Below, in pieces: positions 8,798 through 27,195 of a stretch of DNA of 64,000 nt (positions are counted from its first letter, which is position 1; the number at the start of each line of letters is the position of its first letter). The stretch is from NCBI RefSeq assembly GCF_003334815.1, contig NZ_QOWO01000016.1; one strand, given 5' to 3'. This DNA is from Escherichia coli (lineage in GTDB: Bacteria > Pseudomonadota > Gammaproteobacteria > Enterobacterales > Enterobacteriaceae). The notes under the pieces are model-generated. The model saw only the letters and a program-made list of their open reading frames with translations, ran no database searches and was not told the origin of the DNA. The translations under genes were made by a program, and so were the position numbers.

Positions 8798-10625
8798 ATT
8801 TGAGCTTAAGGCGTTGATCACCGGTGTCGACAGGCTTTCTCCCGCGCTGTCGAAAATGCAAAAGAAAATCCGGGGATTTAAACGCCAGGCGGAAGAAGCG
8901 TCACAGGGGGGGCTGGCGCTTGGTGGCGGACTGGCAGCGGGTCTGACGCTTTCCCTGAAATCTTATGCCGATCAGGAAAACGCTGCCACCGGGCTGAAAG
9001 TCGCCATGATGGATGCGAACGGCGAGGTTGGAAAGCGCTTTCAGGACATCAATAAACTGGCTATTGGCCTGGGTAACCAGCTACCCGGTACAACGGCTGA
9101 TTTCCAGAACATGATGCAGATGCTGGTGCGTCAGGGGATCCCGGCAGAAAACATTCTTGGCGGTGTGGGTAAAGCGACAGCTTATCTTGCGGTACAACTG
9201 AAAAAAACACCGGAAGCGGCTGCCGAGTTTGCCGCAAAGATGCAGGATGCTACCGGAACGGCGTCAGAAGACATGATGGGGCTGTTCGACACAATTCAGA
9301 AGGCGTTTTATCTGGGCGTTGACGATACCAACATGTTGTCCTTCTTCACTAAAACCAGCTCTGTTCTGAAGATGGTGAACAAGGACGGTCTTCAGGCTGC
9401 ACAGAGCCTTGCCCCCATCAGCGTCATGATGGATCAGATGGGGATGAACGGGGAGTCGGCAGGTAACGCCCTGCGAAAAGTTATCCAGTCCGGATTAAGC
9501 GTTAAGAAAATCAGGGACGTCAATAAAATCATGGCCCGCCAGAAACTCGGGGTACAGCTCGATTTTACTGACGGCAAAGGGAGTTTTGGCGGTCTTGATA
9601 ACATGTTCAGGCAACTGGCAAAGCTGCGAAAACTGACCGACGTTAAACGAACTGGTGTACTTAAGGCAATATTTGGTGATGATGCTGAAACCCTTCAGGT
9701 GGTCAATGCGCTGATCGATAAAGGAAAGGATGGTTACGATCAGATCCAGCAGAAGATGAATAAACAGGCCAGCCTGAATAAACGTGTTCAGGCACAGCTT
9801 GGTACGCTGTCCAACCTGTGGGAGGCAATGACGGGGACCGCAACTAACGGTCTTGCAGCTATTGGCGGCGCATTTTCTGGTGACGCTAAAAATATCACGC
9901 AATGGCTGGGGGAGTTGGGGGAAAAATTCACGAAGTTTGCGGATGAAAATCCCCGGGTTATTCGCGGCGTCGTCGGGCTTGCTGCCGGTCTTGCGATTCT
10001 GAAACTGGGATTGATGGGCGTGGGCGGTGCCATCAGTATTGTCAGCAGGATCATGTCGATGACGCCGATTGGCATGATTGCGACGGCGATAGCCCTGGCT
10101 GCGGGATTAATTATCACTAACTGGGATGTTGTCGGACCTTATTTCAAGAAGCTCTGGGAAACCATTGGTCCTTATTTTGAGGCTGGCTGGGAACTCCTTA
10201 AGAAAGTTTTTGCCTGGTCGCCGCTGGGGATGGTGATCAATAACTGGGGGCCGGTTGTTAAGTGGTTTCAGGATATGTGGGACAAGCTGAAGCCAATTAT
10301 TGAGTGGTTTACCGACAGTTCCGGTGACACGGTCGATGCCATTAACTCTGCGCAGTGGGGCGCGGGTGCTTATGATGCTTATGGGACGGGAATACCGGCG
10401 CGGGGATACACACCTTATCCGGCGGTAGAGCCGGCTCAGTCAAACAACGCCTCCGATGCCACAGGCCCGAATCCCTTCATGATCAACAAAGCTTCTGCGC
10501 CAAAAGTTGATGGTGAGATCAAGGTCTCTTTTGTGAATTCGCCTCCGGGTATGCGGGTTATGGAAACGCGATCCAGCGGTTTTGATGTCAGCCATGATGT
10601 TGGCTATACGCGCTTTGGCAGGTAA
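8790..10625 (+). CDS. tail tape measure protein
   Basis: 611-aa ORF after chaperone pair; Ala/Gly-rich helical N-half and hydrophobic segment, typical of tape measure proteins. Confidence 0.85.
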   Translation: MAEFELKALITGVDRLSPALSKMQKKIRGFKRQAEEASQGGLALGGGLAAGLTLSLKSYADQENAATGLKVAMMDANGEVGKRFQDINKLAIGLGNQLPGTTADFQNMMQMLVRQGIPAENILGGVGKATAYLAVQLKKTPEAAAEFAAKMQDATGTASEDMMGLFDTIQKAFYLGVDDTNMLSFFTKTSSVLKMVNKDGLQAAQSLAPISVMMDQMGMNGESAGNALRKVIQSGLSVKKIRDVNKIMARQKLGVQLDFTDGKGSFGGLDNMFRQLAKLRKLTDVKRTGVLKAIFGDDAETLQVVNALIDKGKDGYDQIQQKMNKQASLNKRVQAQLGTLSNLWEAMTGTATNGLAAIGGAFSGDAKNITQWLGELGEKFTKFADENPRVIRGVVGLAAGLAILKLGLMGVGGAISIVSRIMSMTPIGMIATAIALAAGLIITNWDVVGPYFKKLWETIGPYFEAGWELLKKVFAWSPLGMVINNWGPVVKWFQDMWDKLKPIIEWFTDSSGDTVDAINSAQWGAGAYDAYGTGIPARGYTPYPAVEPAQSNNASDATGPNPFMINKASAPKVDGEIKVSFVNSPPGMRVMETRSSGFDVSHDVGYTRFGR

Positions 10626-10685
10626 TGAAAAATTAATCTGTTAATGAGTCCCACTCCGGTGGGATTTTTTATGTACGGAGTTTAT

Positions 10686-12014
10686 ATGACGTGGAAAGAC
10701 AGACTTCAGGACGCGTCATTTCGCGGTGTGCCGTTTAAGGTTGAAGAAGAAAGTGCGGGAACCGGTCGCCGTGTGGAAACACATGAATACCCGAACCGCG
10801 ACAAACCCTATACCGAAGACCTGGGGAAAATCACTTTCCGCCCGTCCATCACGGCTTATGTGGTGGGAGATGACTGTTTTGACCAGCGCGATCGCCTGAT
10901 TGACGCGCTGAATAAACCCGGTCCCGGCACGCTTGTCCATCCGACATACGGTGAGCTGAAAGTCTGTGTTGACGGGGAAGTTCGGGTCAGCACATCGAAA
11001 AGTGAAGGACGTATTGTCCGCTTTGACCTGAAGTTTGTCGAAGCGGGAGAACTCTCTTACCCCACATCAGGTGCGGCGACGGCGCAGACGCTGATGTCAT
11101 CCTGTTCTGCACTGGATGACTGCATCAGTGACAGTTTCAGTAGTTTCAGTATCGATGGCGTGGCAGATTTTGTGCAGAACGACGTCGTCGGTAATGCCAG
11201 CACAATGCTTGGGTATGTTTCTGATGCGATGAAAGTGGTGGATTCTGCCGTATCGGATGCCGCCAGGCTGTTGCAGGGGGATATCTCGGTACTTCTGCCG
11301 CCGCCATCGTCAGGCAAAAATTTCGTTGAGCAGGTGCAGAAAATGTGGCGTACCGGGAAACGCCTTTATGGTAACGCCAGCGACCTGGTCACCATGATCA
11401 AAACGCTTTCCGGTGTCAGCCTCGGCAGCGATCTGCAACCGCGCGGCGTCTGGAAAACGGACAGTAAAACCACCGCCACGGCTACGCAGCAGCGTAACGT
11501 GGTTGCCAGCACCCTTCGTACGACCGCAATCAGCGAAGCGGCGTATGCCGTCACCCGATTGCCTGCGCCAACAACTTCCGCGGTGATGCAGAATGCCGCA
11601 GTGGGGCAGGCAACAACACCTGCGCAGAGCACTGGCTGGCCTTCCGTCACGCATCCGGCACTGAACAATGCACCGGCGGTGAAAAACACAGTTGACCTGC
11701 CGACGTGGGAAGAACTGACTGACATTCGCGACACACTGAATACGGCAATTGATAAGGAGTTGTCCCGTACAACCAGTGATGCGCTGTTTCTGGCGCTGCG
11801 CCGGGTGAAAGCAGATCTGAATGCGGATATCAACACGCGCCTTGAACAGTCTGCACGGATCATTCAGCGCACGCCGGATGAGGTTTTACCCGCGCTGGTG
11901 CTGGCGGCGACCTGGTTTGATAACGCGGCGCGTGACGCGGACATTATCCGGCGTAATGCCATTACGCATCCCGGCTTTGTGCCGGTGATCCCTCTGAAGG
12001 TGCCAGTGCAATGA
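10686..12014 (+). CDS. DNA circularisation protein (Mu gpN-like)
   Basis: ORF open from 10644; start placed at ATG 10686 with GGAG 7 nt upstream (MTWKDRLQDASFRGVPF...); synteny after tape measure. Confidence 0.75.
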   Translation: MTWKDRLQDASFRGVPFKVEEESAGTGRRVETHEYPNRDKPYTEDLGKITFRPSITAYVVGDDCFDQRDRLIDALNKPGPGTLVHPTYGELKVCVDGEVRVSTSKSEGRIVRFDLKFVEAGELSYPTSGAATAQTLMSSCSALDDCISDSFSSFSIDGVADFVQNDVVGNASTMLGYVSDAMKVVDSAVSDAARLLQGDISVLLPPPSSGKNFVEQVQKMWRTGKRLYGNASDLVTMIKTLSGVSLGSDLQPRGVWKTDSKTTATATQQRNVVASTLRTTAISEAAYAVTRLPAPTTSAVMQNAAVGQATTPAQSTGWPSVTHPALNNAPAVKNTVDLPTWEELTDIRDTLNTAIDKELSRTTSDALFLALRRVKADLNADINTRLEQSARIIQRTPDEVLPALVLAATWFDNAARDADIIRRNAITHPGFVPVIPLKVPVQ

Positions 12015-13090
12015 ACGATAACGTCACGCTACGGGTAAATGGCCGGGAGTGGAATGGCTGGACATCGGTGCGCATCGGTGCCGGTATTGAACGGCTGGCG
12101 CGGGATTTCAGTGTGGAGATCACTCGCCAGTGGCCGGGAGATGAGGGTATCACCACGCTTCAGCCGCGCATTAAAAACGGTTCAAAAGTGGAAGTGCTGA
12201 TTGGTGATGAGCTGGTGATCACCGGCTGGGTGGAGGCGACGCCCGTTCGGTACGATGCCCGTTCGGTCAGCACCGGTATTGCCGGACGCAGTCTGACGGC
12301 TGACCTGATTGACTGTGCAGCCGAACCGACACAGTTTAACGGACGCTCGCTGGTGCAGATTGCGCAGGCGCTTGCTGCGCCTTTCGGTATTGAGGTGGTG
12401 AACAGCGGTGCGCCGTCGGGTGTTATTCCTGATGTTCAGCCTGATCACGGTGAAACGGTGATTGAGGTAATCAACAAAATACTCGGTCAGCAGCAGGCGC
12501 TGGCTTACGACGACCCGCACGGCAGGCTGGTGATTGGCGGTATTGGCTCAACGCGGGCACATACCGCGCTGGTACTTGGGGAAAACATCCTTTCCTGTGA
12601 TACGGAGAAGAGTATCCGGGAGCGGTTTTCTGTTTACCAGGTGGCGGGGCAGCGTGCCGGAAACGACGATGATTTCGGTGAGGCCACCACCACCGCGCTG
12701 CGGGCCCGCACAGAGGACGCATTTATTGCCCGTTACCGTCCGATGTATATCAGGCAGACAGGGCAGGCTACGGGGGCAGGCTGTATTGCGCGTGCTGACT
12801 TTGAAGCCCGGCAACGGGCGGCGCGGACGGATGAAACCACCTATGTGGTGCAGGGCTGGCGACAGGGTAACGGTACGCTGTGGCAACCCAACCAGCGGGT
12901 GATTGTCTTTGATCCGGTCTGTGGTTTTGACAATACCGAACTGCTTGTTTCGGAAGTCACGTTTACTCAGGACCAGAACGGCACCCTGACGGAAATCCGT
13001 GTCGGCCCGCCTGATGCTTATCTGCCTGAACCTGAAGCCCCCGGCGCGCGGAAAAAGAAAAAAGCCAGAGTACAGGAGGACCCGTTCTGA
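12011..13090 (+). CDS. tail/baseplate hub protein (Mu gpP / P2 gpD-like)
   Basis: 359-aa ORF overlapping previous stop; position in Mu-like tail module. Confidence 0.75.
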   Translation: MNDNVTLRVNGREWNGWTSVRIGAGIERLARDFSVEITRQWPGDEGITTLQPRIKNGSKVEVLIGDELVITGWVEATPVRYDARSVSTGIAGRSLTADLIDCAAEPTQFNGRSLVQIAQALAAPFGIEVVNSGAPSGVIPDVQPDHGETVIEVINKILGQQQALAYDDPHGRLVIGGIGSTRAHTALVLGENILSCDTEKSIRERFSVYQVAGQRAGNDDDFGEATTTALRARTEDAFIARYRPMYIRQTGQATGAGCIARADFEARQRAARTDETTYVVQGWRQGNGTLWQPNQRVIVFDPVCGFDNTELLVSEVTFTQDQNGTLTEIRVGPPDAYLPEPEAPGARKKKKARVQEDPF

Positions 13091-13638
13091 TGAGGACGAT
13101 TGAAGCCATGCAGCGACAACTTCTCGGCCTGATTGGGCGGGCAGTGGTGAAAAGCATCAGTGCCGCCACGAAATGTCAGACCGTGGATGTGTCCCTGATT
13201 GCCGGTGAACCCAAAGCCGGGGTTGAACATCTTGAACCCTACGGTTTTACCGCAAGGGCAAACAGCGGTGCGGAAGCGGTGGTGTTGTTTCCGGATGGCG
13301 ACCGTTCTCATGCGGTGGTTGTTACGGTGTCGGACCGGCGCTACCGCCTGAAAGGGCTGCAGACGGGTGAGGTGGCTGTCTATGACGATCAGGGGCAGTC
13401 TGTGACGCTGACCCGGGAGGGGATCGTGGTGGACGGTGCAGGTAAAACGATCACGTTTCGCAATGCGCCCAGAGCACGTTTTGAAATGGACCTGGAAGTG
13501 ACCGGACAGGTGAAAGACCTGTGCGACTCCGGCGGCACCACCATGTCAGCGATGCGGCTTGCCTATAACGGCCATTGTCACAGAGAGAACGGTCAGGGCA
13601 GTAACACCGACAAACCGGATAAAGCGATGGAGGCATGA
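13090..13638 (+). CDS. baseplate assembly protein V-like (spike)
   Basis: 182-aa ORF; synteny. Confidence 0.7.
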   Translation: MRTIEAMQRQLLGLIGRAVVKSISAATKCQTVDVSLIAGEPKAGVEHLEPYGFTARANSGAEAVVLFPDGDRSHAVVVTVSDRRYRLKGLQTGEVAVYDDQGQSVTLTREGIVVDGAGKTITFRNAPRARFEMDLEVTGQVKDLCDSGGTTMSAMRLAYNGHCHRENGQGSNTDKPDKAMEA

Positions 13639-14063
13639 TGGAACTGTGGCTGACGGTGAACGGTAAACGCACCTGCGCCAGCGCACCGCTGGATCCGCTG
13701 ACCCGCGCCGTGGTGATTTCCCTGTTTACCTGGCGGCGGGCGGAGCCTGATGACAATGCCGACGTCCCGATGGGATGGTGGGGGGATACCTGGCCTGCGG
13801 TACAGAATGACCGTTACGGCTCCCGGCTGTGGCTGCTTCAGCGCGGCAAACTGACCAATCAGCTGGTGCAGACGGTAAGGGGGTATATCCGCGAATGCCT
13901 GCAATGGATGATTGATGACGGTGTGGTGTCCCGTATTGATCTGGATATCCGCCGCACCGGGATTAATGAACTGGGTAACAGTATCACTCTCTGGCGTCGT
14001 GACGGACCGGTAATGATTTCTTTTGATGATCTGTGGAGTGCGATAACGCATGGCGGACAGTGA
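13635..14063 (+). CDS. baseplate protein (GP46 / gpW-like)
   Basis: 142-aa ORF with overlapping start; synteny between V-like and J-like genes. Confidence 0.7.
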   Translation: MMELWLTVNGKRTCASAPLDPLTRAVVISLFTWRRAEPDDNADVPMGWWGDTWPAVQNDRYGSRLWLLQRGKLTNQLVQTVRGYIRECLQWMIDDGVVSRIDLDIRRTGINELGNSITLWRRDGPVMISFDDLWSAITHGGQ

Positions 14064-15108
14064 ATTTCAGCGCCCGACGCTGGCAGAAAATATCAGTATG
14101 CTCCGTAACGATTTATTCGCCAGGCTGGACGTCAGCGACACGCTCCGGCGCATGGATGAAGACGTGCGGGCAAAGGTGTATGCGGCGGCGCTGCATACGG
14201 TTTACGGTTACATCGATTATCTGGCAATGAACATGCTGCCTGACCTGTGCGATGAGTCCTGGCTGGCGCGACATGCTGCGATGAAACGGTGTCCGCGCAA
14301 GGGGGCCACGTCTGCCAGCGGGTATATGCGCTGGGAAGGTGTCAGCGATGGCCTGAAGGTGACCGCCGGGAGTGTTATTCAGCGCGATGACCTGGTTCAG
14401 TACACGGCAACTTCTGATGCAACCAGCTCAGGTGGAGTCCTGCGCGTGCCGATCGCCTGCTCAACTGCAGGCGCGGTCGGTAACGCTGACGACGGTACGG
14501 CATTAATCCTGGTCACGCCGGTGAATGGTCTGCCGTCTTCCGGTGTGGCAGATACCCTGACTGGCGGATTCGATACTGAAGATCTGGAAACGTGGCGCGC
14601 CCGCGTCATTGAGCGGTATTACTGGACGCCGCAGGGCGGGGCTGACGGGGACTATGTCGTCTGGGCTAAAGAAGTGCCCGGCATTACCCGCGCATGGACA
14701 TACCGTCACTGGATGGGAACGGGGACTGTCGGTGTGATGATTGCCGGCAGTGACCTGATTAATCCCATTCCGGAAGAATCAACGGAAACGGCGGCAAGAC
14801 AACATATCGGGCCACTGGCCCCGGTGGCAGGCTCTGATTTGTATGTGTTCAGGCCGGCGGCGCATACGGTGGATTTTCATATCCGCGTGACGCCGGACAC
14901 ACCAGAAATACGGGCTGCCATTACCGCGGAGTTGCGTTCGTTCCTGCTGCGTGATGGTTATCCGCAGGGAGAACTGAAGGTATCGCGTATCAGTGAGGCG
15001 ATTTCCGGTGCGAACGGGGAATACAGCCATCAGTTGCTTGCACCGGCGGACAATATCTCCATTGCAAAAAATGAACTGGCGGTTCTGGGGACGATTTCAT
15101 GGACGTGA
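14050..15108 (+). CDS. baseplate J-like protein
   Basis: 352-aa ORF; synteny and size. Confidence 0.8.
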
Positions 15109-15683
15109 CAAACGATGATTACATCCGTCTGTTGTCGGCACTGCTGCCGCCCGGTCCGGCGTGGTCAGCCAGCGATCCGGCGATTGCCGGTACGGCACCG
15201 TCATTAACCCGTGTTCATCAGCGTGCGGATGCCCTGATGCGGGAGCTGGATCCGCGCACCACCACCGAACTGATAAACCGCTGGGAGCGTCTGTGCGGCC
15301 TGCCGGATGAATGTATTCCTACAGGGACACAGACCCTTCGCCAGCGCCAGCAACGGCTGGATGCGAAGGTTAACCTGTCGGGTGGCATCAACGAGGATTT
15401 TTATCTTGCACAGCTTGCTGCCCTGGGCAGACCAGATGCTACCATCACGCGATACGACAAAAGCACGTTCACCTGCTCATCGGCCTGTACTGACGCGGTG
15501 AATGCGCCGGAATGGCGGTATTACTGGCAGATCAACATGCCAGCCGCCACCAACACCACCTGGATGACATGTGGCGATCCCTGTGATTCCGCACTGCGTA
15601 TCTGGGGCGACACCGTTGTCGAATGTGTGCTTAACAAACTCTGCCCGTCGCATACCTACGTAATTTTTAAATATCCGGAGTAA
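15099..15683 (+). CDS. tail protein (Mu gp48-like)
   Basis: 194-aa ORF overlapping J-like gene; precedes tail fibre. Confidence 0.7.
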
Positions 15684-15686
15684 TCC

Positions 15687-16367
15687 ATGCATCGTATAGA
15701 CACGAAAACCGCGCAGAAGGATAAGTTCGGCGCGGGTAAGAACGGTTTTACCCGTGGTAACCCCCAGACTGGCACGCCTGCCACCGATCTGGATGATGAC
15801 TACTTTGATATGTTGCAGGAAGAACTCTGCAGCGTGGTGGAGGCATCCGGTGCCAGCCTGGAGAAGGCGCGGCACGACCAGTTGCTTACCGCGCTTCGTG
15901 CGCTGCTGTTAAGCCGCAAGAATCCGTTTGGCGATATCAAATCGGATGGCACGGTGAAAACGGCTCTCGAAAACCTTGGTTTGGGAGAAGCGGCAACGAG
16001 GAACGTCGGAACGGATACCGGGCAAGTACCAGATATGAGTAGTTTTACAACGGGGTACTCTGGAGCAGCAGACTGGCCGAATAGTAAATCTGGATGGAGT
16101 AAGGGGCCGGATGGGGTAATTACACAATGGGGTATTTTCGGTTTCCCCGTTGGACAGACAGGGACGAATGTTGTTTTCCCGCTACCTTTCCCCGCGCGGG
16201 TCGAATCAATTACACTGACAATGGCAGATATCCAGGAGTCTCTGCTTTCTCCAGCAACCATGCCTGCTTATGGAGTTAACTCAACTGGTACTTCAAGAAC
16301 GGGTTTTACAGCCCGTATGTCAGGCGCCGGTGGGTTTAATCTTTGCTATATAGCGAAAGGGAGATAA
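15687..16367 (+). CDS. tail fibre protein (constant N-terminal part + currently expressed variable C-terminal part)
   Basis: N-terminus [26 protein letters not shown]... is a conserved side-tail-fibre N-terminus; recombination site lies inside the gene at 15970..15990. Confidence 0.75.
15970..15990 (+). repeat. gix/hix-like inversion crossover site (left), AAACC-TT-GGTTT core
   Basis: 21-bp sequence whose 20 of 21 positions recur as an inverted repeat at 17856..17876; lies inside the tail fibre ORF at codons for LGLGE. Confidence 0.6.
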
Positions 16368-16371
16368 CAGA

Positions 16372-16815
16372 ATGAATAAAGTTAAAAGTGTTTACAGCCC
16401 GTCCGAAAATGCAATCTACAACGCAGCGCTATATGAAAGTTATATCAAGGAGGGGACATGGCCGCAGGATGGTATTGAAATCAGCGATGAGGATGCTGTC
16501 AGATTTAATGGGGGAAATAAGCCAACAGGAAAAATGCTGGGAATGGTTTCAGGGACCCTTGCATGGGTTGATGAGCCGCCGCTTTCACCAGAACAGAAAA
16601 TATCAGATGCAGAAAACATGAAAGCCACATTTCGTGCAAAAGCTGACAGTGAAATATCCTGGCGTCAGGATGCTGTTGATGCTGGTATCGCAACTGATGA
16701 AGAAACTTCAACTCTCACCCAATGGAAGAAATACCGTGTGCTGCTGATGCGTGTTGATACTTCAACAGCACCCGATATTGAATGGCCTACGCCTCCGGCA
16801 GTCCAGGCCAGATGA
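16372..16815 (+). CDS. tail fibre assembly protein (orientation currently expressed)
   Basis: 147-aa ORF right after tail fibre; C-terminal WPTPP motif shared with the opposite-strand paralogue (WPGLP). Confidence 0.8.
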   Translation: MNKVKSVYSPSENAIYNAALYESYIKEGTWPQDGIEISDEDAVRFNGGNKPTGKMLGMVSGTLAWVDEPPLSPEQKISDAENMKATFRAKADSEISWRQDAVDAGIATDEETSTLTQWKKYRVLLMRVDTSTAPDIEWPTPPAVQAR

Positions 16816-17389
16816 CGTCCGGCGCTGTGCTGGTATCTGTTGCCGTCACCGCGTCAATGTAATCCAGCACGGCGTTAAGTCGGGTTGTTTCTGCCGGCGT
16901 CAACTTCCGTCCGGCCTGTAATTTCAACTGAATCAGACTGATGGAAGCCATTGCAGCATCAATCAGATACTGGCGCTGTGCTTCTGCCGCTTCTACTGCG
17001 GCGCTATGCTGTGCCTCAGTATCCGTCACCCATTTCTCACCATCCCATTTATCGTATGGCGTTAATGGGGCGATAGTGGTTGTATTATCAGGGTAATCAC
17101 CCGGAGCTGTGATTTCTTTGGCGTCTCCCGTTTCGGTGCTATAGACAATTTCACCACGATGGTCTGACACATATTCCCATGATTTTAAATCCATAGAACG
17201 GCAGATAGCATAACCCGCCTTATATGTGCCAGGTTCATCCAGACAGGAATATGCAGGGATACCGACACCAATGGCAAGATATTCATTTGAAGTAGAAATA
17301 TATTCCCGAGTTTTACCATCATAGTTATAGACGGTAATATTCCCCGCCTTCGTGGCAATAAGCTCGCTATTTAATACGGCGTTATCCAT
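16787..17389 (-). CDS. tail fibre assembly protein (alternative, inverted orientation)
   Basis: 200-aa ORF on opposite strand inside the invertible segment, convergent with the + strand assembly gene. Confidence 0.8.
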   Translation of the reverse strand: MDNAVLNSELIATKAGNITVYNYDGKTREYISTSNEYLAIGVGIPAYSCLDEPGTYKAGYAICRSMDLKSWEYVSDHRGEIVYSTETGDAKEITAPGDYPDNTTTIAPLTPYDKWDGEKWVTDTEAQHSAAVEAAEAQRQYLIDAAMASISLIQLKLQAGRKLTPAETTRLNAVLDYIDAVTATDTSTAPDVIWPGLPEA

Positions 17390-17870
17390 TATGCAGCCCT
17401 CACGATATAGTTAAATGCAATATTTCGTGGACGGGTTTCACTCCCGCCAGTATTACCGATACTCCCTCGTGAATGAAGTGTCGGTGATGGGATCAGACTC
17501 CCTCCTGTATTTGTGGCATCAAGTCCCCGTCCTTGTGTGTATGTCTTTTTGAAAATCGTAGCCAGTTCCCATTCATCTTTTGTGTCGTAACCATCATTGG
17601 CAACAACAATATGGCGGTGTTTTTCCAGCATCCCTGTCTGAATGCTCAATAAAACACGTCCTGCATCAATACCGCGCCCGTCATCCCAGCCACGAATAAA
17701 CTCACCACGTAAATCAGGCAATTTATTTGTCGGATAAGCCTTTGCCAGTTCCGGGTATTCTTCAGCAGAAAAAGCCGCACCGTTGCATTTCAGCCAGCCT
17801 GTTGGCGGTGTGGCTGAAGGCCATGGAACAGGCACACCAACAGGTAATGCAGAGCCTTCTCCCAAACCAA
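17389..17870 (-). CDS. alternative tail fibre variable C-terminal segment (promoterless; expressed after inversion)
   Basis: minus-strand ORF reading from the right crossover site; translation contains VGLGE at the junction matching LGLGE of the + strand fibre. Confidence 0.7.
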
Positions 17871-17876
17871 CGTTTA
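17856..17876 (-). repeat. gix/hix-like inversion crossover site (right)
   Basis: reverse complement carries TTGGTTTGGGAGAAG, identical to 15976..15990. Confidence 0.6.
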
Positions 17877-17936
17877 TGAAAATGCAGAAATAACGAGCAA
17901 ATGGCATCATTCCTGCTTTTGTCAGGGAGATCTACT

Positions 17937-18491
17937 ATGCTTATTGGCTATGTACGTGTGTCAACAAATGACCAGAACACAGATCTACAACGTAATGCGC
18001 TGAACTGTGCAGGATGCGAGCTGATTTTTGAAGACAAGATAAGCGGTACAAAGTCCGAAAGGCCGGGACTGAAAAAACTGCTCAGGACATTATCGGCAGG
18101 TGACACTCTGGTTGTCTGGAAGCTGGATCGGCTGGGGCGTAGTATGCGGCATCTGGTCATTCTGGTTGAGGAGTTGCGCGAACGTGGCGTTAATTTTCGC
18201 AGCCTGACGGATGCTATTGATACCAGCACACCGATGGGGCGTTTTTTCTTTCATGTGATGGGTGCCCTGGCTGAAATGGAACGAGAACTGATTGTTGAAC
18301 GAACAAAAGCTGGACTGGAAGCTGCTCGCGCACAGGGACGAATTGGGGGACGTCGTCCCAAACTTACACCAGAACAATGGGCGCAGGCCGGGCGATTAAT
18401 TGCATCAGGCGTTCCTCGCCAGAAGGTGGCGATCATCTATGATGTTGGTGTATCGACACTGTATAAGAAGTTTCCGGTCGGAGATAAATGA
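17937..18491 (+). CDS. DNA invertase, serine recombinase of Gin/Pin/Hin family
   Basis: 184 aa starting MLIGYVRVSTNDQ (catalytic Ser motif); GGGAG RBS; C-terminal HTH; adjacent to invertible segment. Confidence 0.9.
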   Translation: MLIGYVRVSTNDQNTDLQRNALNCAGCELIFEDKISGTKSERPGLKKLLRTLSAGDTLVVWKLDRLGRSMRHLVILVEELRERGVNFRSLTDAIDTSTPMGRFFFHVMGALAEMERELIVERTKAGLEAARAQGRIGGRRPKLTPEQWAQAGRLIASGVPRQKVAIIYDVGVSTLYKKFPVGDK

Positions 18492-18590
18492 AACCGCAGG
18501 CTCGTCGTATGCAAGAAAGTGCTGCGGCTGGCTGGTTAACTTCCGATAGTGAGAGTATTGAATGATTTCCAGTCGTTATCGATTTTACGT
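18489..18590 (+). repeat. direct repeat copy 1 (~100 bp) at left edge of cargo region
   Basis: TGAAACCGCAGGCTCGTCGTATGCAAGAAAGTGCTGCGGCTGGCTGG... recurs at 21775..21877 with a handful of mismatches. Confidence 0.7.
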
Positions 18591-18849
18591 ATTTTTTGCA
18601 TGAGATGATTTGAACGCCCTAGCACCAACCGTTCATGATTGCACGCCACTGTCTCTAGAACTGCTATGAGCATGAAGCCGCTGTTCAAACTAAGAATTTA
18701 TATGGCACTAACAGAAAAAATGTTACATATATGTTGAGCTTTAACGCAACATAGACATGTTCTATAGTTTGTGTCTCACCACCAGTTGAAAAAAAACGAA
18801 AATAGATTAACAATGTTCAGAAGAAACCTTCATAATAGAAGAGGTATAA

Positions 18850-19104
18850 ATGGGTAAGATTATTCGGTGGATGCTTTTTTTTGTCGGATTATTTTCCGTT
18901 GCATATTCAATATATAAATATCAACAATCTCCGCAGAGTTTATTTTACATAATCGGTGCTATAGGAACACTTTTATCTGCTACATGTGGTTTACTTGAGA
19001 TAAAAAGCAAGAAATCGAATGGCAGTATAACTGCTGGCGACAACTCAAATATCGTTGTCATTAATGGTTCAGAAAACACATCAAAAATAAAAAATAGAGG
19101 GTGA
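18850..19104 (+). CDS. small two-helix membrane protein (84 aa), unknown family - cassette 1 gene A
   Basis: ATG with AGAGG RBS ~7 nt upstream; two hydrophobic helices (res ~5-22, ~31-50) then polar tail containing GDNSNIVVINGSENT; hand-counted GC ~30-35%. Confidence 0.6.
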   Translation: MGKIIRWMLFFVGLFSVAYSIYKYQQSPQSLFYIIGAIGTLLSATCGLLEIKSKKSNGSITAGDNSNIVVINGSENTSKIKNRG

Positions 19105-19106
19105 TT

Positions 19107-20042
19107 ATGTTTGATAAAGAGGTTAACTTAGGAGACAACTCAAACGTAGTAAAAACAGAAGGGAATAACAACACAACAATAATAAATAATTTTGATGAGA
19201 AGTTTATAGGTCACGTTGTAAGATCCATGCTTTATGAAAGTATGCCTTCCTTTCAAGAAGAAGCTAGAAAAAAGATAATTGCGTCAACTGATGAATACAT
19301 TAGAGAGCTAATATCTGAGTTAGTAATTCAAAAAACAGATGCAGATACATTAAACCAAAAACTATCAACGCCTGACGTTCAATACTCTCTTTTTGAATCA
19401 GCTAAATGTTTTGCAAAAAATCCAGAAAGAACAGCAAAATCAACTCTGTTAAATTTAGTTGTAAAAAAAATAAATGAATTGGATGGAGATCATGAAGAGC
19501 TTTCCTCTATCGATCTGGCAATAAACGTCGCTACAAAACTTAGCGTAAAGCAAATAAGGTATATATCTTTAATATACTATATTAAAGATATTGTAAAAAT
19601 ATCACAAGATAGTGCCGGCGCTTATTGCATAATAGATCCTTCAAAAGATACAACAGAAGAAGTTGACGATTTCTTTTTATTCCCAAATGATATAAAAAGG
19701 AACAAGCAGGATGTTTATGATCTTTATATCGATCTATATAACAATCAAATGGATGTTGTATTTAAAGATGAAGAGATTGGCCCAGTTGATTATAGTATGC
19801 TTATAGCATTGGGTTGTATCATTCAACCTGCATTCCCTCAGCGAACATTTGTACAAAATGTAAAGAAAAGAACAGGATTAGATTTAAACGACAGCGAACA
19901 AAAATTAAAGCTATCGACATTCATTGAGAAAATAGAAAAAGCTATAGAGATAGATTCTGTCGATTATATAGTATTAACTACGGTTGGTAGACAAATAGCT
20001 AACGCCTATATATCAACAAGAATGAGATTAGTTAACTTATAA
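19107..20042 (+). CDS. 312-aa soluble protein of unknown family - cassette 1 gene B
   Basis: ATG at 19107 with AGAGGG 6 nt upstream, 2 nt after gene A stop (ORF track start 19101 is an upstream GTG); N-terminus contains GDNSNVVKTEGNNNT; hand-counted GC ~27%; followed by hairpin terminator. Confidence 0.65.
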   Translation: MFDKEVNLGDNSNVVKTEGNNNTTIINNFDEKFIGHVVRSMLYESMPSFQEEARKKIIASTDEYIRELISELVIQKTDADTLNQKLSTPDVQYSLFESAKCFAKNPERTAKSTLLNLVVKKINELDGDHEELSSIDLAINVATKLSVKQIRYISLIYYIKDIVKISQDSAGAYCIIDPSKDTTEEVDDFFLFPNDIKRNKQDVYDLYIDLYNNQMDVVFKDEEIGPVDYSMLIALGCIIQPAFPQRTFVQNVKKRTGLDLNDSEQKLKLSTFIEKIEKAIEIDSVDYIVLTTVGRQIANAYISTRMRLVNL

Positions 20043-20063
20043 ATATCTCATATTTCTTCATCC

Positions 20064-20099
20064 AAGGTGGTGGCTTCATCATCCACCGCCTTCTTTTCT
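20064..20099 (+). terminator. rho-independent terminator of cassette 1
   Basis: AAGGTGGTGG-CTTCATCAT-CCACCGCCTT hairpin followed by CTTTTCT. Confidence 0.55.
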
Positions 20100-20103
20100 G
20101 CTC

Positions 20104-20240
20104 TTAAGAGTAGTGAACAAACCACTCGTCAGCAAACTCCCAAGTATCTTTCAGAGTCTCCTGAACAAAAGCCTTAGCAGAATCCTTATCTGCGGTGTAC
20201 GTAACAGGAAAATCATCGCTATGGTAGCTTTGACGCTCAC
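20104..20240 (-). pseudogene. truncated dinI-like remnant (3' portion only)
   Basis: nucleotide similarity to the 3' end of the intact dinI-like gene at 21881..22129 (GTGAACAAACCACTCGTCAGCA.ACTCCCA.GTATCTTTCAGAG...); no N-terminal part or start codon. Confidence 0.6.
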
Positions 20241-20366
20241 CCCCATACCATAAAATATCAAGAGATTACGACTCATTTCCCCATGACTCTTCACCAACCA
20301 ACAGTTCTATCAACATAAGATGTAAACTCATAAACTAAGCAAGATAAAAAAATTAACAGAATTTTG

Positions 20367-20395
20367 TTGATTTCATGTCTGTGGAGTGTTAACTT
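20367..20395 (+). promoter_or_regulatory. candidate sigma70 promoter for the XRE/ImmA operon
   Basis: TTGATT-17 nt-TAACTT about 50 nt upstream of the XRE start. Confidence 0.3.
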
Positions 20396-20445
20396 AAAAT
20401 GAGACCTGAAGTACTGAAGGTCTTTGACACACTGGAGAAGCAACT

Positions 20446-20805
20446 ATGTTAACGCCGTTTGGTAAGACAGTAAGAAAAATGCGCATAGACTTGGGGCTTA
20501 CGCTTAAAAGCATGGCTGAGGCTATGGGCATGACCTCGTCTTATCTTTCAGCGATCGAAACTGGTAAAAGGGCGGTCACTAAGCCCGTGCTTGATAGCAT
20601 CATTAGCTATTTTAATGCGGATGAAAAACAAAAAGAAAAGCTTATCAGTGCAGCTCGTGACTCTCAGCAGTCAGTAGAGATCAGCTTGTCAGGTAAGAAT
20701 GGCCACGCTCGTGAAGTCGCAATTGCGTTCGCTCGTAGTTTTGATGAATTAAATGAAGAAGACTTCCGTAATTTACGACAGATTTTGAATCGAAAACAGC
20801 AGTAG
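20446..20805 (+). CDS. XRE-family helix-turn-helix transcriptional regulator
   Basis: 119 aa; N-terminal HTH region (LGLTLKSMAEAMGMTSSYLSAIETGKR) typical of XRE/Cro-C1 repressors. Confidence 0.8.
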   Translation: MLTPFGKTVRKMRIDLGLTLKSMAEAMGMTSSYLSAIETGKRAVTKPVLDSIISYFNADEKQKEKLISAARDSQQSVEISLSGKNGHAREVAIAFARSFDELNEEDFRNLRQILNRKQQ

Positions 20806-20813
20806 GAGGCGGC

Positions 20814-21335
20814 TTGAGCGGACAAGATTATCGTGTACCTCCGCAGAATCGTGAATCAATACGTTCTATCGTCACATCTCTGCGGAGCGCATTTGGTATT
20901 ACTGGGCTTAAATTCCCTGTAATGGAGGTAATTGAGTTCGCATTGCCTCAGTTGATCCCGGATTTTGAGTTCCACATTGGTGGCATGAAAGAAATGGGAG
21001 AAACGCATGGTCTTACGTACCCACAGGAACATTTATTGATTCTGCGCGAAGACATTTACGAAGGCGCTTTGAATGGGGTAGGGCGAGATAGGATGACTGC
21101 CGCGCATGAATTGGGTCATCTTCTTATGCACAGGAACATCGCATTTGCTCGTTCTGCCCCAGGGGTAAAAATCCGCCCTTTTGAGAGTAGTGAATGGCAA
21201 GCTAAATGTTTTAGTGGTGAGTTATTAGTGCCGGCTATGCATGTCAGTATTTTAAAAGGTATGACGGCTGAGGATGTTGCTAAGGCATGCGGAGTTTCAT
21301 TAGTGGCAGCGCGTTATCAGCTAGACAGAATGTAA
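20814..21335 (+). CDS. ImmA/IrrE-family zinc metallopeptidase
   Basis: 173 aa; TTG start 4 nt after TAGGAGG; HEXXH motif (AAHELGHLLMH); immediately downstream of XRE gene, the classic HTH-peptidase pair. Confidence 0.8.
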   Translation: MSGQDYRVPPQNRESIRSIVTSLRSAFGITGLKFPVMEVIEFALPQLIPDFEFHIGGMKEMGETHGLTYPQEHLLILREDIYEGALNGVGRDRMTAAHELGHLLMHRNIAFARSAPGVKIRPFESSEWQAKCFSGELLVPAMHVSILKGMTAEDVAKACGVSLVAARYQLDRM

Positions 21336-21338
21336 AAA

Positions 21339-21373
21339 CCCCTTGCTTGGCGCCAACCAGTGCAAGGGGCTTT
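21339..21373 (+). terminator. stem-loop after ImmA-like gene (putative terminator)
   Basis: CCCCTTGC ... GCAAGGGG inverted repeat with large loop, then CTTT. Confidence 0.4.
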
Positions 21374-21488
21374 AGGTGATGAATCCAAGAGGCATCACCA
21401 CCGTGAACAGCTTCGATAGACAGCCTGAAATTAACACCTTCAGGGAAGATGTTCAAGGGAAAAATCTCTCTTGGTAAGGAGGTGTTTT

Positions 21489-21593
21489 ATGAATGGGTTT
21501 GAAATCAATTGCTTCAAAAGCGGCGCCCAAAGGGTTCCGTTGGGTTTTCTGCCGTTACCGCAAGGTGCGTGGGAAATCAAAAAAAGTCCTTGA
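21489..21593 (+). CDS. small ORF (34 aa) with strong ribosome-binding site, unknown function
   Basis: AAGGAGG 6 nt upstream of ATG; translation MNGFEINCFKSGAQRVPLGFLPLPQGAWEIKKSP; terminator 60 nt downstream; not in ORF track (under 60 aa). Confidence 0.35.
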   Translation: MNGFEINCFKSGAQRVPLGFLPLPQGAWEIKKSP

Positions 21594-21654
21594 TGCTCAT
21601 GATTACGGGTACGAGGCGTGGGCATTTTTAGTGCGCTGCTAAGGGTTAGTATTT

Positions 21655-21680
21655 AAGGCACCTGCGGGTGCCTTTTTTGT
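21655..21680 (+). terminator. rho-independent terminator
   Basis: GGCACC-TGCG-GGTGCC hairpin followed by TTTTTT. Confidence 0.65.
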
Positions 21681-21774
21681 ATCCTCTGACCCGATTGGTG
21701 TCTTGCTGAGCCTGATAACTACCAATTTTTGTTATTACTATTCTACTATCGCTCAATCATGATTGGCGGGAGTT

Positions 21775-21877
21775 GAAACCGCAGGCACGTCGTATGCAAG
21801 AACGTGCTGCGGCTGGCTGGTGAACTTCCGATAGTGCGAGTATTGAATGATTTCCAGCCGTTACAGATTTTACGTGC
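21775..21877 (+). repeat. direct repeat copy 2 (~100 bp) at right edge of cargo region
   Basis: near-identical to 18489..18590. Confidence 0.7.
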
Positions 21878-21880
21878 TAA

Positions 21881-22129
21881 TTAGTGAACAAACCACTCGT
21901 CAGCAGACTCCCAGGTATCTTTCAGAGTTTCCTGAACAAAAGTTTTAGCTGAATCTTTATCGGCGGTGCGCGTAACAGAAAGGCCATCGTTGCTGGTGGC
22001 TTTTACGATCACCTCTACATCGTCATAACGCTTACTGATGCGTCGAGTTAATTCTTCCTTTAACGCATCCACAGCACCGTTTGGCATTTTAGTCATTTTC
22101 TCTTTAGCTATGCAGATCTCAATACGCAT
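21881..22129 (-). CDS. DinI-family protein (prophage-encoded)
   Basis: 82 aa [11 protein letters not shown]...[11 protein letters not shown], resembles DinI; two LexA boxes in its upstream region. Confidence 0.85.
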
Positions 22130-22144
22130 AAAAATCCCTCTACA

Positions 22145-22160
22145 CTGTGTTTGTATACAG
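22145..22160. promoter_or_regulatory. LexA (SOS) box 1 upstream of dinI-like gene
   Basis: CTGTGTTTGTATACAG fits CTGT-N8-ACAG. Confidence 0.6.
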
Positions 22161-22172
22161 TGTTATTTTTAA

Positions 22173-22188
22173 CTGTATAAATAAACAG
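22173..22188. promoter_or_regulatory. LexA (SOS) box 2 upstream of dinI-like gene
   Basis: CTGTATAAATAAACAG fits CTGT-N8-ACAG. Confidence 0.6.
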
Positions 22189-22213
22189 TGTCAATGGAAC
22201 AAAGATTGCTGCA

Positions 22214-22329
22214 TGTACAAATGTTCTTTGGCTACAAATACACCTACTGATCATGTTCTGCTATGCTCTGATACCTCCAAAATGTACAATCAGCGGCATG
22301 AATTTTTCTTTGTACATATGATTGTACAT
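22214..22329. repeat. cluster of four TGTACA motifs incl. two TTCTTTG-N0-2-TACA(A/T) direct repeats upstream of prfC
   Basis: TGTACA at 22214, 22283, 22311, 22324. Confidence 0.4.
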
Positions 22330-22348
22330 AATTAAAGAGACAACAATT

Positions 22349-23935
22349 ATGACAAGCCTTTTGGCCGCAGAGGTAGCGAAAAGAAGAACCTTTGCAATTA
22401 TTTCTCACCCGGACGCCGGTAAAACTACCATCACCGAGAAGGTGCTGCTGTTCGGACAGGCCATTCAGACCGCCGGTACAGTAAAAGGCCGTGGCTCTAA
22501 CCAGCACGCTAAGTCGGACTGGATGGAGATGGAAAAGCAGCGTGGGATCTCCATTACCACGTCTGTGATGCAGTTTCCGTATCACGACTGCCTGGTTAAC
22601 CTGCTCGACACCCCGGGGCACGAAGACTTCTCGGAAGATACCTATCGTACCCTGACGGCGGTGGACTGCTGCCTGATGGTTATCGACGCTGCAAAAGGTG
22701 TTGAAGATCGTACCCGCAAGCTGATGGAAGTTACCCGTCTGCGCGACACGCCGATCCTCACCTTTATGAACAAACTTGACCGTGATATCCGCGACCCGAT
22801 GGAGCTGCTCGATGAAGTTGAGAACGAGCTGAAAATCGGCTGTGCACCGATCACCTGGCCGATTGGCTGCGGCAAGCTGTTTAAAGGCGTTTACCACCTT
22901 TATAAAGATGAAACCTATCTCTATCAGAGCGGTAAAGGCCACACCATTCAGGAAGTCCGCATTGTTAAAGGGCTGAATAACCCGGATCTCGACGCTGCGG
23001 TTGGTGAAGATCTGGCGCAGCAGCTGCGTGATGAACTGGAGCTGGTGAAAGGCGCGTCTAACGAGTTCGACAAAGAATTGTTCCTTGCGGGCGAAATCAC
23101 TCCGGTATTCTTCGGTACTGCGCTGGGTAACTTCGGCGTTGATCATATGCTGGATGGCCTGGTGGAGTGGGCACCTGCGCCGATGCCGCGTCAGACTGAT
23201 ACCCGTACTGTAGAAGCGAGCGAAGACAAATTTACCGGCTTCGTATTTAAAATTCAGGCCAACATGGACCCGAAACACCGTGACCGCGTGGCGTTTATGC
23301 GCGTGGTATCCGGTAAATATGAAAAAGGCATGAAGCTGCGCCAGGTGCGCACTGCGAAAGATGTGGTGATCTCCGACGCGCTGACCTTTATGGCGGGCGA
23401 CCGTTCGCACGTTGAAGAAGCGTATCCGGGCGATATCCTCGGCCTGCATAACCACGGCACTATTCAGATCGGCGACACCTTTACCCAGGGTGAGATGATG
23501 AAGTTCACTGGTATTCCGAACTTCGCGCCGGAACTGTTCCGTCGTATCCGCCTGAAAGATCCGCTGAAGCAAAAACAGCTGCTCAAAGGGCTGGTACAGC
23601 TTTCCGAAGAGGGCGCGGTGCAGGTGTTCCGTCCGATCTCCAACAACGACCTGATCGTTGGTGCAGTTGGTGTGCTGCAGTTTGATGTGGTGGTATCGCG
23701 CCTGAAGAGCGAATACAACGTTGAAGCAGTGTATGAGTCAGTCAACGTTGCCACTGCCCGCTGGGTAGAATGTGCGGACGCGAAGAAATTCGAAGAGTTC
23801 AAGCGTAAGAACGAAAGCCAACTGGCGCTTGATGGCGGCGATAACCTCGCTTACATCGCTACCAGCATGGTAAACCTGCGCCTGGCGCAGGAACGTTATC
23901 CGGACGTTCAGTTCCACCAGACCCGCGAGCATTAA
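22349..23935 (+). CDS. prfC: peptide chain release factor 3
   Basis: 528 aa from ATG 22349 ([27 protein letters not shown]...); GTPase motifs; ORF track start 22322 is an upstream in-frame ATG. Confidence 0.95.
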
Positions 23936-26416: not shown

Positions 26417-27195
26417 TTTGCCGTTTTATCGACACCCACTGCCATTTTGATTTCCCGCCGTTTAGTGGCGATGAAGAGGCCAGCCTGCAACGCGCGGCAC
26501 AAGCGGGCGTAGGCAAGATCATTGTTCCGGCGACAGAGGCGGAAAATTTTGCCCGTGTGCAGGCGTTAGCGGAAAAATATCAACCGCTGTATGCCGCATT
26601 GGGCTTGCATCCTGGTATGTTGGAAAAACATAGCGATGTGTCTCTTGATCAGCTACAGCAGGCGCTGGAAAGGCGTCCGGCGAAGGTGGTGGCGGTGGGG
26701 GAGATCGGTCTGGATCTCTTCGGCGACGATCCGCAATTTGAGAGGCAGCAGTGGTTACTCGACGAACAACTGAAACTGGCGAAACGCTACGATCTGCCGG
26801 TGATCCTGCATTCACGGCGCACACACGACAAATTGGCGATGCATCTTAAACGCCACGATTTATCGCGCACTGGCGTGGTTCACGGTTTTTCCGGCAGCCT
26901 GCAACAGGCCGAGCGGTTTGTACAGTTGGGCTACAAAATCGGCGTAGGCGGTACTATCACCTATCCACGCGCCAGTAAAACCCGCGATGTCATCGCAAAA
27001 TTACCGCTGGCATCGTTGTTGCTGGAAACCGACGCGCCGGATATGCCGCTCAACGGCTTTCAGGGGCAGCCTAACCGCCCGGAACAGGCTGCACGGGTGT
27101 TTGACGTGCTTTGCGAGTTGCGCCCGGAACCAGAAGATGAGATTGCCGAAGTGTTGCTTAATAATACGTATGCGGTGTTTAGCGTTCGTGGGTAG
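26413..27195 (+). CDS. yjjV: TatD-family metal-dependent hydrolase YjjV
   Basis: 260 aa, TTG start overlapping yjjU stop; DTHCH motif. Confidence 0.9.
   Translation: MICRFIDTHCHFDFPPFSGDEEASLQRAAQAGVGKIIVPATEAENFARVQALAEKYQPLYAALGLHPGMLEKHSDVSLDQLQQALERRPAKVVAVGEIGLDLFGDDPQFERQQWLLDEQLKLAKRYDLPVILHSRRTHDKLAMHLKRHDLSRTGVVHGFSGSLQQAERFVQLGYKIGVGGTITYPRASKTRDVIAKLPLASLLLETDAPDMPLNGFQGQPNRPEQAARVFDVLCELRPEPEDEIAEVLLNNTYAVFSVRG

Follow-up and report, generated by a model that had tools for sequence, protein, structure and literature searches.

The right-hand attachment site of a temperate lambdoid prophage in the first codons of prfC in Escherichia coli

The stretch of DNA analysed here (the window) comprises 64 kb of an Escherichia coli genome, and its features are listed in Table 1. 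Phage genes occupy the left part of the window, and its left edge cuts the gene for the large terminase. The Shigella phages SfV, SfII, SfI and SfIV share the late region at positions 1-15990 with 97% identity (97.4-97.7% for SfII, SfI and SfV). Convergent tail-fibre and assembly genes were observed on both strands beside a pin/pinE-type invertase, forming an invertible tail-fibre segment (16372-18491). A similar arrangement is present in e14 and Mu-like phages.

Table 1. Features around the prophage-prfC junction (positions in the 64-kb window)
Feature	Position	Strand	Description
Late region: head, contractile tail, baseplate, invertible tail-fibre/pin	1-18491	+	Functions from the 98%-identical annotated GPEC620 prophage
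Cargo zone between pin and dinI	18489-21880		G+C about 0.32; from repeats, PADLOC and homologue annotation
84-aa membrane ORF	18850-19104		First gene of the low-GC pair
313-aa LPO_1073/Vpar_1526-family protein	19101-20042		Second gene of the low-GC pair; homologue annotation
Second dinI, 3' remnant	20111-20218		87% match to 21882-21989
XRE-family HTH protein (119 aa) and ImmA/IrrE metalloprotease (173 aa)	20446-20805, 20814-21335		PADLOC capH/capP-like
dinI-like gene, intact, last prophage gene	21881-22129	-	82 aa; PHROG 'RecA filament binding protein DinI', E=4e-31
Two LexA-box-like palindromes, CTGT-N8-ACAG	22145-22160, 22173-22188		Only two matches in the window
dinI promoter-like site	-35 TTGACA 22194-22189, -10 22170-22165	-	Score 10/12; overlaps both palindromes
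prfC-specific arm (P arm of attP, phage side of attR)	22195-22396	+	In about 700 E. coli genomes, with 98-100% identity and invariably beside prfC
Four TGTACA motifs	22214, 22283, 22311, 22323		Span 22214-22328, within 115 bp; last two form the 12-bp-spaced pair TGTACATATGATTGTACATAAT
Phage-supplied prfC translation start	22334-22396	+	SD-like AAAGAG 22334-22339, ATG 22349-22351, codons 1-16
Recombination core ATTATTTCTCACCC	22397-22410	+	prfC codons 17-21 (I-I-S-H-P); common to attP, attB, attL and attR
Host-derived rest of prfC	22411-23935	+	Hybrid ORF 22349-23935 encodes a 528-aa RF3

In the cargo zone, the 313-aa protein matched only a PHROG of unknown function, and PADLOC returned no match for the low-GC pair to which it belongs (18850-20042) or for dinI. 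The best PADLOC matches of the XRE/ImmA pair were CapH and CapP, which are DNA-damage-responsive regulators of CBASS, and no effector operon was found beside the pair in the window. In strain 510016 (locus L002, 15562-19686), the same XRE/ImmA pair is divergent from an IS1-disrupted operon of SLATT and reverse-transcriptase genes. Direct repeats with 93% identity were found at 18489-18590 and 21774-21875, with the 87% dinI repeat nested among them; recombination at such shared sequences seems to have piled up cargo modules in the interval from pin to dinI. Related prophages carry cdtABC, a reverse transcriptase with SLATT, or nothing at this spot. Just downstream of dinI, a sub-threshold Rfam match to the sRNA STnc130 was noted on the minus strand (21646-21758; 30 bits against a gathering score of 55), and it overlaps a predicted plus-strand intrinsic terminator (21655-21674) which would end the XRE/ImmA transcript.

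The homologues of the dinI-like gene in related genomes are annotated as 'DinI-like family protein', and the start codon of this minus-strand gene is at the end nearest prfC. The spacer between the two genes (22130-22348) is 219 bp long, ending at the prfC ATG at 22349. The G+C content is 0.35 at 22100-22399 versus 0.55 inside prfC. An earlier sequence-only reading had described an intact phage dinI-like gene about 220 bp upstream of prfC and an AT-rich spacer with TGTACA repeats, and the gene of 82 aa, the spacer length, the G+C of 35% and the four TGTACA agree with both statements. The CTGT-N8-ACAG palindromes would be LexA boxes of the divergent dinI-like gene, a suggestion made because of the known biology of dinI. 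Since the first 65 bp of the spacer (22130-22194) are common to many phages that integrate elsewhere, the prfC-specific arm begins at 22195. Besides E. coli genomes, this arm is found in phages cdtI, 2H10 and PhiR63_1 and in Stx1a/Stx2c phages.

On the other side of the spacer, the RF3 of the window starts with MTSLLAA. K-12 PrfC (WP_000175940.1, the PrfC accession in both DH1 and the strain taken as the empty site) starts with MTLSPYLQEVAKRR, which differs from the start in the window, as the earlier reading had stated. From E8 of the window protein and E9 of the K-12 protein onwards, 520 of 521 residues are identical. Seven residues are thus present in place of eight, host residues 2-8 being exchanged for six others, and the hybrid protein is one residue shorter. 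Codons 8-16 encode EVAKRRTFA as in the host, with differences at 8 of 27 bases, all eight of which are synonymous; in 200,000 random trials with eight substitutions in these codons, none was fully synonymous. Because all of the recoding is synonymous, the phage-borne segment appears to be under selection, and we regard this as strong evolutionary evidence that the segment was selected to encode a working RF3 N-terminus. At the base level, the alignment with the empty site showed synonymous differences through codon 16, and past ATTATTTCTCACCC the sequences agree save for scattered strain polymorphisms. The replacement start that had been read from about eight divergent codons followed by identity was therefore real, but its length was underestimated: the phage-derived stretch is 16 codons, nine of which are synonymously recoded.

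The origin of this stretch was established by a four-way comparison of attP from the free phage cdtI, attB from a prophage-free genome, attR from the window and attL from a related complete prophage in strain GPEC620. The arms are exchanged among the four sites exactly as for site-specific recombination, and hence the core is at 22397-22410, just ahead of the GTPase P-loop of RF3. Left of the core, the DNA is that of the phage throughout, including the ribosome-binding site, the ATG and the 16 codons. In the free genome of phage cdtI, the equivalent of 22130-22396, the 14 bp, an int-proximal arm of the GPEC620 type and int follow one another uninterrupted (the arm, core, second arm and int are at record positions 26707-28435), and the window is 98-99% identical to this phage over 22130-22410. 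Independently of the present alignment, the identical 14 bp are annotated as a 'duplication due to insertion' in the Stx2c phage record LC727876. The core occurs once in the window. No tRNA or tmRNA gene was found near the junction, and hence it is not a tRNA-type att site; an Rfam search at a permissive E-value gave no match in 22130-22400 and two sub-threshold matches further left. The host genes that follow prfC, namely osmY, ytjA and yjjU, are also those found there in genomes without the prophage.

We therefore assign 22130-22410, with high confidence, to attR, the right-hand junction of a temperate lambdoid phage in the first codons of prfC. The same comparison bears out what the sequence-only reading had proposed, namely a prophage/host junction at the 5' end of prfC, made by a phage that integrates there and supplies a replacement start. 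Its range of 22130-22390 had the location right and the end too short, as the core is 7 bp beyond 22390. Alignment with the prfC upstream region of prophage-free E. coli set the breakpoint at 22397-22410; in these genomes the upstream DNA differs from that of the window, and yjjG is there, ending 90 bp upstream of prfC. An extremely improbable alternative is that the divergent 5' end is a host allele produced by recombination or polymorphism, with the prophage boundary in intergenic DNA upstream of the ATG. The resumption of protein identity at residue 8 is the only point in its favour, whereas free phage genomes, which have no host prfC, carry the ATG, the ribosome-binding site and the 16 codons, and a lysogen still has the native prfC 5' end at its attL. 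The four-way comparison thus refuted a host allele and placed the prfC start within attR.

The GPEC620 prophage is 98% identical to window positions 1-22400. In this genome, yjjG is followed by a prfC stub of 69 nt and the gene for a tyrosine integrase of 412 aa and then, after about 41 kb of prophage, by dinI and prfC. Its attL consists of yjjG, the native prfC 5' end, the core ATTATTTCTCACCC and the int-proximal arm CAATAATTAA, which gives the attL-type order yjjG, ATGACGTTGTCTCCTTATTTGCAAGAGGTGGCGAAGCGCCGCACTTTTGCC-ATTATTTCTCACCC-CAATAATTAA and then the integrase (WP_001218297.1 type). The int gene is directly next to the arm and is oriented towards the prophage interior. The GPEC620 integrase is 98% identical to that of cdtI (PF13356, PF22022 and PF00589), and this Int of the related genome has the combination that characterizes the IntSXT cluster, an N-terminal DUF4102/Arm-DNA-bind_3 domain with a catalytic domain. 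A gene annotated as 'anti-phage dCTP deaminase' adjoins the integrase (GPEC620 locus L004, 3295-4890), so that cargo or defence genes have a further position at the opposite end of this type of prophage. After integration, the native promoter-like element TTGCCT-16-TAAAAT is left at attL, where it is directed at the 24-codon stub and int, and no terminator was predicted between this element and int (L004, 6230-6700). The host prfC promoter may drive int in lysogens.

The junction is best explained as follows. Site-specific recombination by a tyrosine recombinase inserted the phage at prfC codons 17-21, within the core ATTATTTCTCACCC, and separated prfC from its native promoter and ribosome-binding site and from its first 16 codons. 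In the related lysogen, this severed 5' end is at attL, about 41 kb away. The phage arm, with its surrogate ribosome-binding site, ATG and 16 codons, rebuilds a full-length RF3 ORF of 528 aa in which only residues 2-8 are changed.

The sequence-only reading had placed an integrase and a second att copy beyond the left edge of the window, and this fits the homologous 41-kb GPEC620 prophage, by analogy with which int and attL of the present prophage are predicted to be left of the window. The present prophage could nevertheless be truncated or non-excisable. The window stops inside the terminase gene, with int and attL outside it, and other genomes have IS-disrupted, truncated prophages at the prfC site, for instance strain 510016 (IS100, IS66 and IS1, with partial tail genes). 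Still, it is unlikely that this genuine attR belongs to a fixed remnant in which int or attL has been lost or rearranged and excision no longer occurs, because the late genes of the window are all intact and 97-98% identical to those of functional phages, and the same genes match the complete 41-kb prophage bounded by int and attL.

The site in prfC is also that of SXT/R391 elements (Hochhut & Waldor 1999, as cited in passages of PMC2791158, PMC4885824 and PMC12210918), and SXT integration restores a functional prfC (PMC12210918). With a published primer sequence as the pattern, 38 SXT/R391-type left ends were recovered from genome loci. In 19 of the 22 left ends with full flanks, the same 14-bp core, followed by TGA to give the 17-bp SXT core, is 140 bp from a pair of GTACA motifs. 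Like the window, these elements restore prfC with element-borne sequence and have GTACA-N7-GTACA in the arm, and like the GPEC620 prophage they encode a DUF4102/Arm-DNA-bind_3 tyrosine integrase, homologous to that of the prophage. However, they are conjugative elements of about 100 kb, whose int faces attL from some 3.4 kb away, and their int expression depends on SetCD (PMC4344509). Because the target site is the same (PMC2791158), the inserted element might be read as an SXT/R391-type conjugative element or another genomic island. This has hardly any chance of being correct: the neighbouring 22 kb contain genes for portal, capsid, sheath, baseplate and tail fibres with 97% identity to Shigella phages, and no SXT/R391 conjugative backbone was found beside the junction, where the adjacent DNA consists of phage head and tail genes. 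The SXT/R391 family is defined by an Int that is nearly identical (about 99%) to IntSXT (PMC2791158), whereas the Int tested here, from the related GPEC620 prophage, shares only 38% identity with that of SXT type. An SXT/R391 or island identity was rejected on the adjacent head and tail genes, and the element is regarded as a phage.

TGTACA occurs 9 times in the window versus 10.4 expected, which is at chance level, but four copies in the 154-bp arm are not due to chance (Poisson P=2.6e-7, given the local composition). The int-proximal arm holds four more, and the motif is thus in both arms of attP. The window has a single GTACA-N7-GTACA, at 22312; this form was also found in the int-proximal arm in eight Int lineages (50-100% identical) and in 36 of 36 SXT-type left ends. 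The Int homologues examined from Xenorhabdus (63% identity), Serratia (60%), Pseudomonas (52%), Vibrio (51%) and Shewanella (50%) all adjoin a prfC stub with ATYATHTCNCACCC at its end, and all have GTACA-N7-GTACA in the arm. The differing neighbours of the Shewanella and Pseudomonas homologues of about 50% identity had suggested other integration sites, which was rejected as the prfC stubs are present. The new detail is that the 12-bp-spaced GTACA pair is kept in the arms of all diverged relatives examined, SXT-type ends included.

Only one locus among the Int homologues examined, from a Morganella-like contig (L093, 2255-2510), is without the prfC core. Its Int, 51% identical to the phage Int, follows trkA with no prfC-like core upstream, and the contig keeps a TGTACA-N6-TGTACA pair; within the clade, this Int may have been redirected to a different site. 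Viral contigs searched with the integrase yielded 119 relatives (the best 80 of the 119 being 95-100% identical), and no new upstream arms were obtained from them, most contigs starting at int.

The TGTACA/GTACA repeats are probably arm-type binding sites of the integrase, because the pair is conserved across otherwise unalignable arms and keeps its place relative to the core even when int is 3.4 kb away. The N-terminal Arm-DNA-bind_3 domain would bind the repeats in the AT-rich arm, and TGTACATATGATTGTACA is the candidate sequence for this binding. Position and conservation of the motif are what favours Int over the alternatives of excisionase, host factor or promoter element. It is possible, though rather unlikely, that the repeats instead serve as operators for another protein, such as an excisionase/RDF or a host factor, or form part of promoters for the surrogate prfC and int units. 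The best weak plus-strand -10 (TATGAT, 22317-22322) is exactly between the paired TGTACA, and in the phage lineages the pair is 30-90 bp upstream of the int ATG, a promoter or operator position. In SXT-type elements, however, the distance between the pair and the core is constant at 140 bp, even though int is some 3.4 kb off and oppositely oriented, and this favours a function in the att arm over one in an int promoter. The presence of the motif in both attP arms and of an arm-binding domain in all these integrases likewise speaks for the arm-type assignment.

[quoted passage not shown] A consensus sigma-70 scan of the plus strand before prfC gave no match of at least 9/12. At a relaxed 8/12, only weak candidates were found, the best being GCGGCA-18-TATGAT at 22293-22322, the one with its -10 in the TGTACA pair. 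For a Stx1 phage in prfC, Ogura et al. [quoted passage not shown] The hybrid prfC, with its intact reading frame, is presumed to be expressed in the lysogen. The surrogate upstream region may not merely replace the prfC promoter but put RF3 synthesis under phage control, since the only plausible -10 is between paired TGTACA that are probably occupied by the integrase, and the native prfC promoter is redirected into int; we consider such control distinctly unlikely. Prophage integration at prfC has been counted among gene 'disruptions' in the survey of Bobay et al. (PMC3603311). Here prfC is an intact hybrid gene, and the label is not strictly right.

Phages at this site have been described before. 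Stx1 and cdt phages at prfC were already published in 2007, Stx1a and Stx2c phages at prfC were catalogued in the CC119 lineage (PMC10132054), and the cdt1 phage Int and IntSXT were placed in one prfC-targeting cluster (Smyshlyaev et al. 2021, PMC8138268). The phage comparators used here were cdtI (AB285204; Asakura et al. 2007, as cited in a passage of PMC8138268) and records LC727876-LC727902. Over 22130-22410, the att arm of phage cdtI and the Stx1a/Stx2c phages is 98-99.5% identical to that of the window, and they share the 14-bp core, the RF3 N-terminus MTSLLAA and a dinI-like gene by the arm. The cdtI and Stx phages differ in having lambda-like long non-contractile tails and cdt or stx cargo (PMC10132054), whereas the window prophage combines the cdtI-type att module with an SfV/SfII-like contractile-tail late region and other cargo. 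This is one more combination within a known set. No match to the prfC-specific arm was found in the Shigella Sf phages in the phage search. SfV, SfII, SfI and SfIV reportedly integrate at tRNA-Thr (thrW) with a different integrase. A related strategy is known from phage 21 and e14 at icd, whose att arm has a diverged copy of the gene end, so that the ORF is intact after insertion. These phages replace the 3' end of the gene, whereas the phage of the window replaces the 5' end. Phages that insert in a coding sequence and duplicate its end were discussed by Bobay et al. (PMC3603311).

The arrangement is frequent. A 1-kb query across the site matched all 5426 complete E. coli genomes, the whole query being matched in 474, and the arm is beside prfC in 699-700 of the 5426. 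In the roughly 4,700 genomes without the arm, homology in megablast starts only at window position 22369. The arrangement is thus real, correctly interpreted, already known and common in E. coli.

For annotation, prfC in such strains should be treated as an intact hybrid gene, and the prophage boundary should be placed at 22397-22410. If phage control of RF3 synthesis were true, RF3 levels, and hence the fidelity of termination and quality control, would be tied to the prophage state in about one eighth of E. coli strains. The prfC site is used in common by Stx, Cdt and SfV-like phages and by SXT/R391 resistance elements, and its occupancy may affect which elements a strain can acquire.
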